A DNA stretch of 63,808 bases, the filler included, from Reticulomyxa filosa (Eukaryota > Protista > Foraminifera), in NCBI GenBank assembly GCA_000512085.1. It is 18 parts of 18 records of this genome, joined end to end, with 100 filler letters (N's around TTAATTAATTAA, not from the genome) between each part and the next. Parts side by side here need not be neighbours in the genome. Positions count along the whole stretch, not along the records: positions 4,808 to 9,206 come from ASPP01011824.1; 17 more parts are not named here. One strand, 5' to 3'. Position numbers and translations under genes: made by a program. This document shows positions 4,808 to 18,273 of this stretch, piece after piece. A model generated the notes under the pieces. That model saw nothing but the letters and a program-made list of their open reading frames with translations. It did no database searches and was not told where the DNA came from. The stretch's first letter is position 1; every line of letters begins with the position of its first letter.

Positions 4808-4847
<40 letters not shown>

Positions 4848-4854
4848 AGGAGAG

Positions 4855-7800
4855 CTACTTCTTAATATCTTGCACATACATATTGGGCATATATTTGGAT
4901 TGTCTTTTCTTTTTTAGTTTGGAATGACTGACGAACAACTCGTCTTCCTTCTTTCGAGAGGGCTCTTTTTCACTGCCCAATTCTTGATGTCTTTCCCGTA
5001 GCAAGGCCAGATTGCGATCGTAGCTTTTGGATAAAAGCTGATCGATATACTTTTTCGCTTGGTTGTGAAGCTGTTGTCTTTGAGCATGAAGCATTTGTTC
5101 GTAGATGACGTCGCGCAGAAAGCCATATGAGAATTCGTAGACATGACAATCGGAATAGTCCCCTTCGCTGTCGCTGTGTTCATTTTCGACTGACTCCAAA
5201 AGATCGCTTCCGCTGGTCGTAAAGTCTATTTTGGCAGAGTGGTCCATGATGCTATTGGCATTTGCGTTTGGACTGTTGAGCGTCTCTTTGTCGCCTTTCA
5301 ATGCTTTTTTGAACAGTTCATACCACTCGTTCATATCCTTTGACTTTTCGGCGCGCAGCACATAGTTTTTGCGTGAGGTCTGCACCTTCAGCTGGTTTTC
5401 GTCTTCACGTCTCAGCTTAATGCCAAGGCCAGGACCGAACTTGATTCGATTGACTGGATACTGTTCTTTTCCGGGGTCTTTGAACCAATACAGTGTGTGG
5501 TGTTTGAACACAAAGTAGCGTTCCTTCTCGGAAAAGTTGAACGTGGCCACACTTCGTTTGAACATGCGACCTTTTTTGTAAGGGACATCGATGGCGGGGA
5601 CTTGCAGTAATGATAGAGTGGATGGCATTGGATCGTTGTTGTTATCTCCTCCTCCTACTCCCATGGGAGAGTCCAGATGATTATTAGTACTCAATTTCTT
5701 GCTGAAGCTGACTAAGCTGTCCTCGCCTCCCTCCGTCGTAGTGGTGTCCGGACCATCTTCATTACTCGTCGCTTGGATATTGATCGTCACGTCTAGTTGT
5801 TTGTGTTCGTTGTCTTCATCGTGGTCGTCATCACGCTCATGGTCATGCTCGTGAGTAGTGTCTACCGTGTCGTCTCGTTCGGTAACTGCGTTGCGTAGAT
5901 TGACGACAAACATATCAGTATCCTTGGGTGTGTTCTTATTGTCGATGTCCACTGTCGTCGTCGTTGCGTCTTGCTTTTTCGTAAAAGCCAACGATATATT
6001 AGTCAGACTGGTGACATTTTCAATCGATCTAGGCGTCGATGTGTCGTGGTCGTTGCTCCTGTTGTGCGTGCCGTCTTCGTTCATGCTGGGCGCTCGAAGC
6101 GATGTCGCGTGTGCGAGGCCACGACTGGTACTGTCGATAAACACTATGAAGCCCATGTTGCGCAGCTCCGACAACGACTTGCGTAGCTTGTGCTTCTCTG
6201 CCATGCCTTCGACCGGGTGCGTACCTCGCAGCATCTCTTCTTCAAACTGTCGACTGCGATTGCCCTTTGCTTTGCAAATCACTGCCGCCGTCTTCATACA
6301 CATTACCAGCTCCGTACCGATGCAATCCAAGTGTGCTGCTGTGATGCTTTGGATATACGGAGGGATGGGAAACGGTACGTCCACGCCCACCTTTAGCTTC
6401 TCTTCGATCGTTTCGTTGAATGTTATTATTTTGTCGCTTTGGTCGCTTTTGTTCACCAGCACTTGCACCCATGGTTCTTTCGCGTCTTTCAATGCCCGTA
6501 AAAACTCGGTACTTTTTTTTATTAATGAAAAGCAATAACATACATGTACATTTCATATACATAAATATATATATATGTATATATGTATATATGTATATAT
6601 GTATATAATTAAATTAATACCAGAAACCAGGTCTGCCACCACATTCGAAATAAACAGTGTCCACTAAATGCTTGGAACAATCCTTGACGTCAGACGAATT
6701 GATGATCCACTCTTTGGTTTGATGCCACGTCCATAACTGCGGTGACACAAATGTTTGTGCCATGCTACGTAGGTCGCAGTACTCAAAAATGCGCTTAGGC
6801 TGTGTAAAGTGCGGGACGTATCGACGGTTGTCCATTGGCATCCCGCCCAACAACAGCACGACATTTTTCACCACTTTTTTATGGATCAGCATCGACAGTC
6901 TTCGTGTCAGCTGCCAATCGCGACTGTCCAAGTATTGGATTTCGTCGAGGACAATGGCCAACAGTCGCTTTCGAGACACCCACTCCAACAAGCAGATCAG
7001 CAAATCGTGGCGATATTGGAATAGCGTTTCTTTGCTCACGTGCGGACTGATCGCATTTATATTTTTTTTGAAAGGCACTTCCAACTCTGTTCCCATTTCT
7101 TTTTTAAGTTTATTCCGACACACAATAATTTTATTTTTTCAAGGATTCAAGCATTTGTTTTTAAAAAAAAAAAAAAAAAAAAAATAGCTAACCCAAAATA
7201 TCAGTTAGCAAATATAAATACTTTTCCAAGTCGGGTCTTCTTTGCTTGACCCAGGTCTGCAACTGAAAGCGGTTTCTACGCAATGACAGCGAGTACTTTT
7301 GCGAAAACTCGAGCATGACCTGCCTCCAAACGACGTAATTGAGCTTAGACAAGGAGTGAAAGCAGTCGGCGTGTCCCCATAAAAACCACGCTTTGTGTTG
7401 ATTGGAGGCTTTAATTTGGGCCAAGAGCGTGGATTTCCCGACAGCGATTTCCCCTTCGACAAATATAATTTGCGCTTCGCGCGACTGCAAGGCCTTATCG
7501 ATGCACAAGCTAGCCTTGTTGATGGAATCGTAATCACTCGTTTTCAAATTTTTCGCATAGCCCGGTTTGAATGGCACGATTTCGTAATTGGCCAACATTG
7601 GTCGAAATATTTCCACCGGTTCCTCTAAGCCTTTCAACAAGCTCGTTCCCAACTCCGACCACGCGATTCGAATTTCTTTTTGTGCTTTTTCGTATACGGA
7701 TCGATCACATATTACGTCTATTATTATTAATATTTATTATCATTTATTTCAAAGTATATACAATACATGCATAGAAGCAACAACACATGCGTATATGAAA

Positions 7801-8591
7801 TCTATGCGAATGCGAAAGTGTACGTACACATGCACGCAAATTAAAGTATACAAAGTAGTATGCAAAAAAAAAACGAAACGGCCAAGATGAGCATTTTTTT
7901 TTGCTAAGCCCATGAGACGCGCGGCCAAATTGACCTGGCTTCCCAAGACGGTATATTCTCTGCGGGTGCCAAAAGTCCCTCCAATGAGGCCGGAAAATAC
8001 AATGCCACTGGCCAAGCCCAATGCTGCGTACGAGTGTTTGGACAAACGGGAAAAGCGTTTGTTCAACTCCAATGCCGCCAAAACGGCGCGCACTGGGTCG
8101 TTGCTATGGGCAACTGGCGGTAAGCCAAAGACGGCCATGACGGTAGACCCTTTGTCGTCCACCAGAAATTTGTTCAACGATCCTTGGTATTTGTAAATGA
8201 CATTTTGCAGTACTTTGATATTCTTTTGGACCGTGTACAGCACATTCGATTGTCGATTTTTGACCAAGTCTTCCAAAATCTCCGCCTCAAAGGGGAGACT
8301 GATGAACAGCACTGTTACCTCACGCAGCTCTCCGGTCCACAACGTGGAGGGCATGTCTAAGTGGGGTCGCACCGCGGATGGGATGTACCCTTTCATTTTG
8401 TTCGCCAACTCCGGCGTCACGTTCAGCTTTTCAAAGTGCTCTCGACGGATCGGCTTCGCCGACGTCACCAATACATTCCCATATTTGCTCGTGGGGATGC
8501 CTTTGTGTTGGCACAAGTCGCCCAACACATCACGAGCTTCCTTGCTGATCACCACTTGTTCCGGTAGACAGTCCGTCTATTCCAAGTATTA

Positions 8592-8627
<36 letters not shown>

Positions 8628-9206
8628 GTACATATATGAATATATGTATAGCCTCCGAAACTTCACACTTAAAGGCTTGCATTAACGCATCTCCACAAAC
8701 CAAGTATTCACATCGTCCTAACTTGCCACCGACAATCAACAATGAACACTTGCCTGCGCCAATGCCCAATTTAACTCGCAGTTCGGGGTCTTCTGCTCCA
8801 TTTTTTTTTTGTTGTTTTCGGTTATCCTTGCACCTGCCAATCGCATCACGTTGTATTCCGTCTGGATATCCAGCGCGCATCGCGTGGCCAAATGAGTCAG
8901 TTGTTCCAAATCCTTTTGTTGTTTTTCCAAGTCATCAAACAGTGTTGGATCCGGGGGCCAAACGCACAGTAATGCATCCCCTGCAAATTTCACCACGTCT
9001 CCTCCAAAGGCTATTATCTTACGTACTTTTTTTTTTTAAACATACACACACGCATACATACGCACACGCGCAGCAACACAAATATTATACATGTACATAT
9101 ATTATATTTTTTAAAAATATGCAAAAAAAAAAAAAAAAAAAAGATGCACAACATGGACTTTTTTTTTTTTTTTGAAATCACTCATCAGGGTGTACATGGT
9201 CAGTTG
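4855..9206 (-). CDS. Soluble adenylyl cyclase-like (ADCY10-type) protein: tandem class III cyclase domains, STAND NTPase and inserted PH domain; 5'-partial, multi-exon
   Basis: C1 KFAGDALLCVWP (~8960-8995). C2 GELREVTVLFISL, NKFLVDDKG, FGLPPVAHSNDPVRAV, REYTVLGSQVNLAARLM (7900-8340). Walker A GEIAVGKS (~7430-7455), Walker B IVLDEIQYLD, CGGRPGF, and STAND-type F..GFLRDVIYEQML..QRQQLH. Exons approx. 8996-8660, 8576-7890, 7665-7190, 7123-6620, 6510-4855. Confidence 0.9.
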
Positions 9207-9401: not shown

Positions 9402-9404
9402 GGC

Positions 9405-10301
9405 ATGGCGCGCGAAACCGGAGACAGCGTCCGCGGCCGCGCGCCGTACCTGCCGATCCACAAGCGGCCGAAGCTCACCCTGCCGGGCGACGCGCGCGTC
9501 GCCGTCTGGACGATCGTGAACGTCGAGAACTGGAGTCCGGCCGGGGCGATGCCGCGCACCGTCCTGCCGCCGCCAATGGGCGTGCCGCTGCTGCCCGACG
9601 TACCCAACTGGGCATGGCACGAGTACGGCATGCGTGTGGGATTCTGGCGCTTCCTGGAGACGCTGAACGCCCGCAAGCTCAAGGCGAGCTTCGCGGTGAA
9701 CGGCACGGCCTGCGAGCTCTACCGCGAGGCCTGCGAGGCGGCGCACGAGGCCGGCTGGGACTTCATGGGTCATGGCTGGGTGCAGAAGCCGATGCACAAG
9801 GTCGAGGACCAGAAGAGTGCGATCGCCGACACGATCCGCGCCATCAGGGACTTCACCGGCAAGCCGCCGCGCGGCTGGGAGAGCCCCGGCCTCACCGAGA
9901 CCGACGAGACGCTCGACCTGCTGGCGGAGGCCGGCATCGAATATGTCGCCGACTGGGTGATGGACGAGCAGCCGCTGCCCTTGAAGACCGCGCACGGGGA
10001 GATCGTCTCGGTGCCCTACACGGTCGAGATCAACGACGTCGTCATGAGCGCCGTGCAGCAGCAGCCGTCCGACGAGATCTTCCGGCGCGGCCGCGACCAG
10101 TTCGACCGCCTCTACCTCGACGGCAGGACCGCGCCGCGCGTGATGGCGATCTCCATCCATCCCTATCTCACGGGCGTGCCGCACCGGATCAAATATCTCG
10201 AAATGCTCTACGACTACATCCTCGGTCACGAGGGCGTCGTCATGTGGACCGGCGCGGAGATCCTCGACTGGTACCGCACGCAGGTGTCGGCGACGCGGTA
10301 G
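9405..10301 (+). CDS. Bacterial polysaccharide deacetylase family protein (CE4, PuuE/allantoinase-like)
   Basis: Complete 298-aa GC-rich ORF with VAVWTIVNVENW, WHEYGMRVGFWR, FMGHGW, PRGWESPG, PYTVEINDV and MAISIHPYLTGVPHR motifs. Confidence 0.92.
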   Translation: MARETGDSVRGRAPYLPIHKRPKLTLPGDARVAVWTIVNVENWSPAGAMPRTVLPPPMGVPLLPDVPNWAWHEYGMRVGFWRFLETLNARKLKASFAVNGTACELYREACEAAHEAGWDFMGHGWVQKPMHKVEDQKSAIADTIRAIRDFTGKPPRGWESPGLTETDETLDLLAEAGIEYVADWVMDEQPLPLKTAHGEIVSVPYTVEINDVVMSAVQQQPSDEIFRRGRDQFDRLYLDGRTAPRVMAISIHPYLTGVPHRIKYLEMLYDYILGHEGVVMWTGAEILDWYRTQVSATR

Positions 10302-13353: not shown

Positions 13354-14741
13354 TTATTTTCCCTCGCCCTCTCCTTCACCTTCGTTTTGTGGTTTTTCAT
13401 CTGCATTATATTTTTCGTTTAGCGCCTGTACTTTCTTAGTGGTCCATCCCAAAGCAGCTTTACCAGCCCTGCTGCTCCATTGGGCTGCCTTACTGGCCGC
13501 TGTAGTGGCCGCTGTGGTATCATTAGCATCGCCTTGCGAAGGTGTAGCGTCAGTTGTTCCAGAGGCGGGAGCAGAGTCGTTAGTATCAGAAGAAGAAGAA
13601 GAAGAAGAAGTAGTAACAGGATACTGATCGTCTGCTTTTGCGACTCCCTCATTTTCGCTTTTCATCTTCTCAGTCCAATTTTCCAGTTTCCCTGTAGTCC
13701 ACTGCAACACTTGTTGGCCAATTCCTTGTCCATTTTCATTTTCGCGGGTTTTTTCTTCAATATTCTTTTTTTTGTTTTGGTTTATTTTTTGGAATTTTCT
13801 TTTTCTTTTTATACGTAAAAAACAGTCGGCAAAAAAAAAAAAAAACAAAACCCACCCATTTTTCGCAACAAATAAAATTTTTAAAAAAAAAAACAAAAAC
13901 AAAACAGCATTTTGTGCGGTGTTGTTGTCGACAACAGCAATACCAGGCGCAGAAGGGGGTGGATTGGAGTAGTACACAAGAGGCTGCTGATCTTGAGACA
14001 AAGTTTGGAATTGATATTGAGGCTGAGGCTGATACTGAGGTTGAGGTTGAGGTTGAGGTTGATACTGAGGTTGAGGTTGAGGTTGATACTGAGGTTGAGG
14101 TTGAGGTTGAGGTTGATATTGGGGTTGAAGTTGGTATTGAGGTTGATATTGGGGTTGTGGTATGGCGACAGGAGCAGCAGGATTTATATTTTGGTTATAC
14201 GTACCAGCGATAAGTGGTACGGCCACTACGATGTTGTTGTTGATAGTAGTGTTATTAACATTCACATTGTCGACATTGTTTCTGTTAGCCTCATCGTACG
14301 CAATGGTGGCTTTATCAATGACATCCACAACAGCCCAAGCGGTGGAGCCTGAATTGTAATGATCAATGGCGGTAGAACACCAGCACCAAATGAACGCAAA
14401 ATAGCAAGCGAAGCAGACCCAGCAGCAAGGAATGCACCAAAGGCTAACTCCGCAACAAGTAAAGTTTTCCGTGTCGACACATCTGGAAAACCAGAAAAGG
14501 AGGAAAAGGGTGACACCAACACTGAAGTAAACAATCAACATAATGCCAAGCAATGTCAAACCAGCTCGGTTGCACTCCTTTCCATACGAAATTGCATACG
14601 ATCCGCTTATCCCTATCACTATCAGCACAAACAAGTATACCGTAAATACGATGTCTTTCATACAAAGTTCTTGCACTTGCGAATTTTGGTTCATTGGTTT
14701 TTGAGGATTTGTGTTATTGTTATCATTGTTAATAATAATCA

Positions 14742-14787
<46 letters not shown>

Positions 14788-15198
14788 GGGAATGCCATTG
14801 TTTGCATTACTTGTGGCATTATTTTGGGAATTGATGCCAAGGGCCCGGATTACGTATACAGCAAAAGCAATGTTAAGTAGTGCGGCAATAATAGCGCAAA
14901 TTTCCACGAGTTCAACTTCACTTGCATCTTTATTGCACGTCGATGATGGCTCTCCTTGTATCAGGTCCACTATGCCAGATCCAATTCCCACGATATTCAG
15001 TATCATGCCCAACAAGAGAAATGTGCCCAAAGGTCTTCCGCTTTGACATTCTTGACACATGAAACCAGACAACGTGCAACCGCAGTACCTTGCCGCCAGG
15101 GGGCCGTCACAACAGCAAATGCAGAACACAACATTAAAGAAAGCTTCAATGCATAAGCAACATTCACATAAGGACCTCAAACATGATTTTTCCTGCAT
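13354..15198 (-). CDS. Cys-rich multi-pass membrane protein with poly-N, QPQY repeats and low-complexity tail
   Basis: 614-aa ORF with 4-5 hydrophobic segments and Cys clusters. Probably contains an in-frame 141-nt intron at 13765-13905. Confidence 0.8.
14015..14160 (-). repeat. Coding tandem repeat (CAACCT)n/CAGTAT encoding QPQPQY
   Basis: TTGAGG and GATACTGAGG units on the + strand. Confidence 0.9.
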
Positions 15199-15885
15199 GA
15201 CAGTGTTCCTGTTTTTTTTCTTGTATTTGATTTACCGAGCTTTTTTCTTCTCTCCCCTCTGACCTACCAGAGTTTGGCACCACTAACTGTAACATCAACA
15301 ATTCCTGGAAGAGTTGTAATTCTTGACAACTTTTATTACCACCTTCTTTCTTATCTCAGTGTACAATCGCTTCATGGCGTGGAACAATCATTCAATTAGA
15401 GATAATAAGAGTTGTCTGAGTTATTTTTTCAAACTTTTTTCAAAAACATTGTTTCAAACGTCAGTATTTATTTCCTTGTTTATTTTGAACATTTCCCCCA
15501 ATGCATAGTTTTCGAAAAAAACCCAGTTTCAGTTTTGGCCAAGGTAAATTTTTAACAATTGTTTATTCTCTGCAGTTCTCTCGCAAGTGTGGTTAACATC
15601 ATTGTCGTTTGCTTTATTTTCTCAAAGAAAATTCCATTGTCTGGTAGCTCAAAAAAAATTTTTGCAAAGCAAATGAGAAGAATTATGAAACTTCACCCCA
15701 ACCTTTGAACGGCGAATTATTTTTCACCTTTTTCTTGAAAGCGACTTTGTGCAAAGCTACGAACGCTTTGTTTCATATTTTTGTTTAAATTTATAACGTT
15801 TAAAACGACATTTTTGAAGAGAGCTGCTCATTTACTTTTGCGTGAAAGAGTTAGCAAAGAGGAAAAGAAAAAAACAATCGGAATT

Positions 15886-18273
<2,388 letters not shown>

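Follow-up and report, generated by a model that had tools for sequence, protein, structure and literature searches.

A PH domain lies inside the winged helix of an ADCY10-like tandem cyclase of the STAND class in the foraminiferan Reticulomyxa filosa. The gene, RFI_15964 (protein P0078), is located on the minus strand of positions 4808-9206 (ASPP01011824.1) in the stretch of 63,808 nt analyzed here (the window), to which all coordinates refer; residue numbers such as K318 follow the last exon. The cyclase-cyclase-STAND organization recognized in the first-pass annotation, together with the motifs quoted there, was confirmed: the C1 and C2 exons both match ADCY10 best in a PDB search (E-values in Table 1), PF00211 is found twice in P0078 by Pfam, and the last exon, a single open frame of 551 amino acids (6511-4855, minus strand), contains all quoted motifs, i.e., IPPYIQSITAAHLD, MKTAAVIC and NMGFI, the PH string YKKGRMFKR..KERYFVF..LYWFK..YVLRAE..MNEWYELFKKAL and, at 5139, the second half of the winged helix, YEFSYGFLRDVIYEQML. 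The two ADCY10-like domains, of which the first lacks its 5' end, are those of a tandem class III cyclase of the ADCY10/soluble adenylyl cyclase (sAC)-like family. They are followed by the elements of a STAND module, namely a P-loop nucleotide-binding domain with Walker A/B motifs (AAA_16 and NB-ARC matches), a helical domain with GxP motif and a winged helix. No membrane anchor is present among the Pfam matches of P0078, as judged from Pfam alone and with the 5' end missing.

A PH domain within the winged helix

The PH domain, previously placed at approximately 5585-5295, is found by Pfam as PF00169 in segment 5281-5610 (E 6.7e-7; 30.2 bits, above the cut-off of 25.1), and scores 24.5 bits, slightly below the cut-off, from the whole last exon. 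AlphaFold, run on the last exon with a 50-sequence alignment, predicts a PH fold for residues 311-405, with seven strands and a helix in blocks of 85-98 in the predicted local distance difference test (pLDDT). The seven-strand sandwich and the C-terminal helix with its Trp that characterize PF00169 are found by Pfam, AlphaFold and Foldseek; every PDB row shown by the latter is a PH domain or PH-containing chain, with ARAP2/ARAP3 as the best matches (template-modelling (TM) score by target 0.69-0.81). The predicted TM (pTM) values of 0.63 for the last exon and 0.79 for the homologue P0006 are not used as evidence for docking of the PH domain, and a complex prediction run without alignment, in which the PH domain was paired with the STAND core and the second half of the winged helix, scored 0.00 twice and is counted neither way.

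The two profile halves of the winged helix are separated by 332 residues in frame (about 330 had been estimated), compared to a median gap of 7 residues in the 91 of 118 proteins without internal PH domain. The insert is coding, since stops are absent from its frame, while the two other frames have 13 and 20, and its GC content is exon-like (46-50%, with at least 33% in every 40-nt window). The four long introns of the gene have a GC content of 14-28% and the 41-nt intron one of 37%. The helical and winged-helix parts are confidently predicted (pLDDT >90 across most of 50-125 and 460-510), and the linkers flanking the PH domain (133-289 and 411-441) are predicted to be disordered. A short predicted strand (122-125) closes the first winged-helix half and another (457-460) opens the second half; based on this secondary structure and the order of the profiles, we read them as the hairpin of the wing, with the PH insert between them.

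Sequence conservation follows this organization. Among the R. filosa paralogues, identity amounts to 81-85% in the N-terminal part of the winged helix and 84-88% in its second part, and the PH domain is 67-76% identical among four paralogues, compared to 12-35% for the linkers. Linker 1 shows 13-20% identity, whereas the segment PMPSTLSLLQ between this linker and the PH domain shows 68-79%. It is highly improbable that the insert is removed by splicing, stems from mis-assembly or rides along neutrally in a pseudo-enzyme. The draft assembly is indeed fragmented (the window has 17 spacers), and the gene lacks its 5' end, but the frame is open with exon-like GC content, the PH domain is much better conserved than the linkers, the insert recurs in Nonionella and Bolivina proteins as well as in five more from R. 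filosa, and the transcript open reading frame (ORF) P0008 runs in frame from the first wing strand through the PH domain to the second half.

The protein ends approximately 94 residues after the insert and 92 amino acids after the F..G.RD motif, close to the 90 anticipated, and no C-terminal repeat sensor (TPR, LRR, WD40) is matched by Pfam in RFI_15964. Most close relatives end 82-105 residues past the F..G.RD-type motif and some at 53-60; a hidden TPR exon beyond the contig end was considered and is ruled out by these tail lengths.

The features of the gene are collected in Table 1. Its 5' end is missing because the contig ends at 9206, which truncates the first cyclase domain and leaves the Asp47 equivalent off the contig. 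The public gene model splices the region 8793-8833 otherwise than the 41-nt intron proposed here; a homopolymer frameshift or the short intron of the public model near 8800 is disfavored, not disproven, by the spacing in homologues. At 4855-4862, a GT overlaps the stop codon and is followed by a T-run, resembling the intron donors of RFI_15964. This GT may act as an additional donor, in which case the protein would extend a few residues further at its C-terminus, like the paralogue P0002; its last residues are thus uncertain.

Table 1. Features of RFI_15964 in the window, with the evidence for each.
Feature	Position	Strand	Evidence
RFI_15964 gene, ADCY10-like cyclase-cyclase-STAND	4855..9025	-	exons match P0078 at ~100%
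Exon, part of C1 cyclase; K95 equivalent 8988-8990, D99 equivalent 8976-8978	8834..9025	-	ADCY10 residues 83-108 aligned, E 3e-5
Intron, GT..AG, 41 nt, proposed	8793..8833	-	GT/AG present; DIQ-KLG motif spacing as in P0025 and P0207; inferred
Exon, C1 end; K144 equivalent; R176 position is Phe	8662..8792	-	aligned to ADCY10 138-172; position 176 by ungapped extension
Intron, GT..AG	8661-8577	-	
Exon, C1-C2 linker and C2 cyclase domain; K334, D339, T405, N412, R416 equivalents	7880..8576	-	PF00211 E 2.3e-6; ADCY10 E 1.5e-19
Intron, GT..AG	7879-7718	-	
Exon, C2 end and start of STAND NTPase; Walker A GEIAVGKST at 7428-7454	7193..7717	-	AAA_16 E 4.7e-6; NB-ARC 0.002
Intron, GT..AG	7192-7099	-	
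Exon with Walker B (AIVLDE, 6941-6958), Met in place of the sensor-1 Arg, and GxP motif	6621..7098	-	AAA_16 E 0.008; motif columns
Intron, GT..AG	6620-6512	-	
Winged helix, N-terminal part, ending in putative first wing strand IVFI 6136-6147	6136..6393	-	predicted helices 66-82, 91-97, 106-119, strand 122-125, pLDDT >90
Linker 1, 157 aa, acidic, Ser/Thr-rich, predicted disordered	5644..6114	-	pLDDT <50; 33 D/E vs 13 K/R
Conserved segment PMPSTLSLLQ before PH, short predicted helix	5587..5643	-	pLDDT 86-90; aligned in all clade PH domains
PH domain; beta1 Lys 5557-5559, beta2 Arg 5518-5520; net charge +13	5296..5586	-	PF00169, fold, motif counts
Linker 2, acidic, predicted disordered	5161..5280	-	pLDDT <50; 8 D/E vs 1 K/R
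Putative second wing strand VYEF, winged-helix end, following helices; Tyr at His position	4975..5142	-	predicted strand 457-460, helices 463-512
Basic C-terminal tail, KKKRQS and stop; PKA-type motif KRQS 4897-4908	4855..4974	-	net charge +7

Distribution and descent of the in-wing layout

A first search returned three R. filosa paralogues with 54-58% identity. An earlier alignment search among proteins of 1288-3675 amino acids yielded none out of 6858 candidates, a sensitivity miss, as later searches found such proteins: HMMER against 1.84 billion representatives gave 67 matches, and a search with the Nonionella protein P0070 gave 240, of which 120 are listed. Both winged-helix halves were located in 118 proteins, 27 of which have a PH domain between the halves, with inserts of 225 to 528 residues. 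This count includes near-duplicates as well as P0085, P0086 and P0202 with a divergent PH-like insert; 14 in-wing proteins are left once 16 near-duplicate ids are dropped and P0085 is set aside. The in-wing PH layout is real and lineage-wide in foraminifera. All named in-wing members (not including P0014 and P0081-P0083) belong to this group, with P0078, P0002, P0003, P0004, P0012 and P0019 in R. filosa (as counted in the protein database), P0070 and P0079 in Nonionella and P0010/P0071 in Bolivina. The sequence sets of the latter two genera are presumably transcriptomes. UniRef names the R. filosa paralogues 'PH domain-containing protein'. P0006 repeats the end of P0070 exactly, though with a different species label, and was counted once; this identity between a Bolivina-labeled and a Nonionella-labeled sequence possibly reflects cross-contamination between data sets.

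The insert itself varies in content. In five proteins (P0024, P0026, P0045, P0083, P0199), the wing insert that holds the PH domain continues with a PI3K-type Ras-binding domain (E 1e-5 to 2e-3); P0082 groups with this subgroup, the domain being undetected by Pfam in P0082. The Walker motifs are broken in P0082 and P0083, and the basic PH residues are lost in P0026 and P0083. Some relatives have very short PH linkers (P0014, P0081). In fragment P0066, a pair of EF-hands (residues 27-87) directly precedes the second winged-helix half and might make up an insert for calcium sensing at this position of the wing. In a neighboring clade, divergent PH-like wing inserts are present in P0085/P0086/P0202 (~1160-1260) and in P0043 (~796-884), which may derive from the same ancient insertion event or from another one.

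In a FastTree phylogeny of 69 rows, rooted on bacterial-type rows, the 47 rows without Pfam TPR match form a single branch with support 100. Nine in-wing rows together with P0087, which has an insert of 110 amino acids without PH domain, form one clade (100/99) in an IQ-TREE analysis of 27 rows. Its neighbors, at an unresolved fork (81/90), are four no-insert cyclase-STAND-phosphodiesterase (PDE) proteins including Plasmodiophora P0207, and the pair P0085 and P0043. The first-pass annotation had suggested that the PH domain took the place of the TPR sensor. As a single event this does not hold, since the no-insert relatives P0207, P0025, P0049 and P0084 also lack TPRs and end in a phosphodiesterase; judged from these closest relatives, the TPR loss is older than the PH insertion. 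A replacement of TPR by PH fits better with the protist homologues in which the PH domain follows the winged helix than with RFI_15964.

The 26 in-wing PH domains group together over 97 columns (Shimodaira-Hasegawa-like approximate likelihood ratio test 91). On the in-wing profile, the downstream PH domains of other homologues score a median of 9.8 bits, versus 45 for unrelated PH domains, although the latter were picked as matches to RFI_15964 and are hence biased. A common origin of in-wing and downstream PH domains is not rejected by the approximately unbiased (AU) test (p 0.44). The profile scores thus argue against a transfer of a downstream PH domain into the wing, whereas the AU test does not reject it.

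Catalytic core, STAND module and possible control

Catalytic positions were taken from the function table in the accessible part of PMC12867704. K95, D99, K144, K334, N412 and R416 are invariant in 11/11 clade members and T405 is retained in RFI_15964. The D47 motif is present in 9/11 members, the other two, P0078 and P0077, being N-terminally cut fragments. RFI_15964 likely makes cAMP, because K334 and T405 point to adenine and hence to conversion of ATP. The R176 position is occupied by Phe in all 11 members with K95 kept, so the mammalian bicarbonate site (K95 and R176) is incomplete in RFI_15964, and bicarbonate control of the mammalian type is unlikely. Since most non-mammalian sACs also miss one residue of this site (accessible part of PMC12867704), the missing R176 would speak against bicarbonate control, not against family membership.

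Sensor-1 and related motifs have functional roles in STAND proteins, and their state differs between the groups compared here. The Walker motifs had been described as intact. Walker A indeed fits GxxxxGK[ST] with its Lys-Ser, and the Asp-Glu of Walker B is kept, but the middle Gly of Walker A in 10/11 clade members is Ala in RFI_15964, and Walker A or B is degraded in 4/11 members (P0079, P0080, P0082, P0083). The sensor-1 Arg is retained in 1/11 clade members, compared to 18/20 proteins with a PH domain after the winged helix, 15/15 of the TPR type and 3/4 without insert. The winged-helix His is found in 2/14 clade members versus 37/50 short-gap, long-tail relatives, and is also mostly absent from the PH-after proteins (3/18) and the no-insert group. 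RFI_15964 lacks both residues of a working switch, having Met for the sensor-1 Arg and Tyr for the His. These residues suggest that the STAND module likely serves as a damping scaffold and not as a functional ATP switch. Structure comparison agrees with the class assignment: the P0006 model matches ORC/Cdc6, CED-4, Apaf-1 and plant NB-ARC chains (E ~1e-5 to 1e-6) as well as Avs3 chains and PH domains, a bacterial AAA_16 cluster was matched in an Atlas structure search (TM 0.71 by row), and an Atlas feature search gave leads only, all <0.9 (AAA_16, WHD_MalT).

A lipid-gated switch, in which the PH ligand would pull the wing hairpin, open the STAND latch, allow nucleotide exchange or oligomerization and relieve inhibition of the cyclase, is consequently unlikely in our view. 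The insertion site would suit it well: the insert lies between the predicted wing strands (122-125, 457-460), directly before the motif with the His of 37/50 short-gap relatives. The winged-helix His of resting STANDs binds the beta-phosphate of ADP, according to the available text of PMC10427625, and we infer that the clade column corresponds to this His. The intact Walker A Lys and Walker B Asp-Glu of RFI_15964, the conserved ordered segment before the PH domain and the very short linkers of P0014 and P0081 would also be in line with gating. Yet the sensor-1 Arg and winged-helix His are rare and the Walker motifs decayed in part of the clade, the linkers of RFI_15964 are long and disordered, and mammalian full-length sAC showed no nucleotide regulation in the part of PMC12802110 consulted.

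We favor, with about an even chance of being right, an ADCY10-type adenylyl cyclase tethered to anionic membranes by the PH domain and the basic tail. In this model, C1 and C2 would fold into a single active site converting ATP to cAMP, and the PH domain, on flexible linkers of 40-160 amino acids, would bind acidic or phosphoinositide-rich lipids via the beta1 Lys and beta2 Arg, assisted in membrane attachment by the basic tail. Synthesis of cAMP would thereby be placed at particular membranes of a very large cell; paralogues that differ in their linkers, or that have an additional Ras-binding domain, would act at other sites. More speculatively, protein kinase A (PKA) could phosphorylate the KRQS tail and release the enzyme as a negative feedback; the clade tails are mostly basic, and the PKA-type motif [RK][RK]x[ST] occurs in 12/24 of them versus 3.6 expected from shuffles, in relatives that are not independent. 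Phosphoinositide-binding PH domains have a signature of a Lys ending beta1 and a (K/R)xR in beta2. RFI_15964 carries this signature with K318 and K329-E-R331. Membrane recruitment, which the first-pass annotation had proposed to occur via phosphoinositides, is plausible, because both the beta1 Lys and the beta2 Arg are kept in 24/26 in-wing PH domains, whose net charge ranges from +5 to +17; the nucleotide 'switch' to which it was coupled is doubtful on account of the sensor-1 and His counts. The variable insert length likewise suits a tether better than a rigid lever. In mammals, the activity of full-length sAC is only ~3-fold below that of the truncated form, and none of the nucleotides tested had a regulatory effect (both from the accessible part of PMC12802110).

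Several points weigh against the tether. The Asp47 of RFI_15964 lies off the contig, with D99, K334, N412 and R416 present. The full beta2 KxR, with the upstream K/R, occurs in only 8/26 in-wing PH domains, and both basic residues are lost in 2/26 (P0026/P0083 group). Strong lipid specificity is absent from most PH domains, many of which bind acidic regions of proteins (bioRxiv 10.64898/2026.09.21.753330, in the part available), and lipid binding is poorly predicted by sequence motifs (PMC4704004, likewise in part). The insert directly precedes the helix contacting ADP in resting STANDs, a position that suits allosteric control. RFI_15964 keeps the Lys-Ser of Walker A and the Asp-Glu of Walker B and may therefore have retained ATP binding and turnover.

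Alternatively, the PH domain would be a protein-binding module, with a small GTPase, a G-protein subunit or acidic or phosphorylated segments, possibly its own acidic linkers, as partner, and with lipid being secondary. We rate this as rather unlikely. The lipid site of PH domains binds acidic as well as phosphorylated protein regions (excerpt of bioRxiv 10.64898/2026.09.21.753330) and PH domains often bind acidic proteins (excerpt of PMC4704004); both linkers are acidic and Ser/Thr-rich, part of the five proteins with a Ras-binding domain has lost the basic PH residues, and Ras activates the soluble guanylyl cyclase (sGC) of Dictyostelium (PMC8684759, in the part accessible). Conversely, the linkers are not conserved (12-35%), and the canonical Lys/Arg pair of the lipid pocket is kept in 24/26 PH domains.

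A broader and improbable scenario is that foraminifera rebuilt the sAC STAND switch: the repeat sensor and nucleotide latch would have been dropped and the wing would have become a socket for signaling modules (PH alone, PH combined with a Ras-binding domain, perhaps EF-hands and, in the neighboring clade, a further PH-like insert), so that lipid, Ras or calcium inputs would act on the cyclase from within the NOD (nucleotide-binding oligomerization domain) module, with PKA feedback via the basic tail. If true, the result would be a STAND protein whose sensing runs through a swappable insert within its own wing.

With regard to the control that the STAND region exerts on the cyclase of ADCY10, purified full-length sAC showed no specific regulator in the accessible part of PMC12802110. 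The in-wing variants, being short and TPR-less, with a ligand domain of known type and differing STAND residues, offer a compact system to distinguish a switch from a scaffold. The presence of at least six paralogues in one R. filosa genome suggests local control of cAMP at the membranes of very large cells.

Other contigs of the window hold three further observations. The segment 9307-10418 (minus strand) is a GC-rich, intron-free contig amid AT-rich foraminiferan contigs and looks bacterial (contaminant or symbiont); its ORF 9402-10301 of 299 amino acids has no Pfam match at E 0.01, and we take it to resemble polysaccharide-deacetylase/PuuE proteins. At 15739-16257 (plus strand), a gene start with a cyclic nucleotide monophosphate-binding domain (PF00027, E 6e-9) is located on a separate contig, physically unlinked to the cyclase. 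The long ORF at 13354-15231 (minus strand) has no Pfam match; it contains hydrophobic segments rich in Cys, runs of Asn and a QPQYQP repeat.

Comparison with known systems

The first-pass annotation did not recognize the architecture. Among the matches listed, PF00169 is present in 20 of 120 homologues, one of them in-wing; of the other 19 homologues, 16 have the PH domain behind the winged helix, and in the remaining three (including Paraphysomonas) the second winged-helix half was not located. Judged from these sequences, the cyc-cyc-AAA-PH order is common in protists, which limits the interest, and only the in-wing position is special. That position is apparently undescribed in an ADCY10-like cyclase: no published description of a PH-bearing sAC-like STAND cyclase of foraminifera or other protists was found, though subscription journals may bear on this. 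Varied cyclase architectures have been reported for Physarum (PMC4758236, in part), and high expression of foraminiferal sAC during calcification is reported, with no architecture stated, in the accessible part of PMC10284544.

Mammalian ADCY10 (core PDB 4clf, 4oya), the best PDB match, shares with RFI_15964 the tandem C1-C2 followed by a P-loop STAND module and the residues K95, D99, K144, K334, N412 and R416 (table in the available part of PMC12867704), and the top Atlas structure row of the paralogue P0002 is an ADCY10 cluster (TM 0.41). Unlike ADCY10, RFI_15964 has a PH domain within the winged helix and Phe for R176, and it ends ~94 amino acids past the insert, whereas human sAC has a long C-terminus with speculative TPR motifs and a haem domain (PMC3475452, as far as accessible). 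The bacterial cyclase-cyclase-AAA_16-TPR proteins ('class 3 adenylate cyclase/TPR', e.g., P0124 of Anaerolineales) have the same core through the end of the winged helix at ~25% identity over the query region, but differ by a wing gap of ~7, a TPR-bearing tail of 500-650 amino acids, the sensor-1 Arg (15/15) and the His (37/50).

Within the protists, the TPR-less family repeatedly carries PH, C2 and FYVE domains. The PH-after proteins (Lagenidium P0089, Triparma P0105, Paraphysomonas P0137, Paulinella P0113) belong to the same TPR-less clade and have the same Pfam order, but often add C2, FYVE, GYF, GNAT or PDE domains and keep the sensor-1 Arg (18/20). The closest group with a named member, that of Plasmodiophora brassicae P0207 (with P0025, P0049, P0084), shows 32% identity over 807 columns and shares the GF[LV]RD-type motif and the lack of TPR, but has a wing gap of 17-50 residues without PH domain and a C-terminal PDE. 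P0207, P0025, P0049, P0084, P0093, P0110 and P0137 each have a cyclase and a class I phosphodiesterase on a single polypeptide, some of them along with PH and C2 domains.

The Dictyostelium sGC is kin to sAC. Like RFI_15964, it is a soluble cyclase with a C-terminal AAA-ATPase region, and it is regulated by membrane binding, actin localization and Ras; unlike RFI_15964, it makes cGMP and has a long N-terminal segment that directs cytoskeletal localization, and the accessible part of the source makes no mention of a PH domain (PMC8684759). A tethered enzyme with a scaffold-like STAND module would agree both with the mammalian sAC data and with the control of localization in Dictyostelium sGC.

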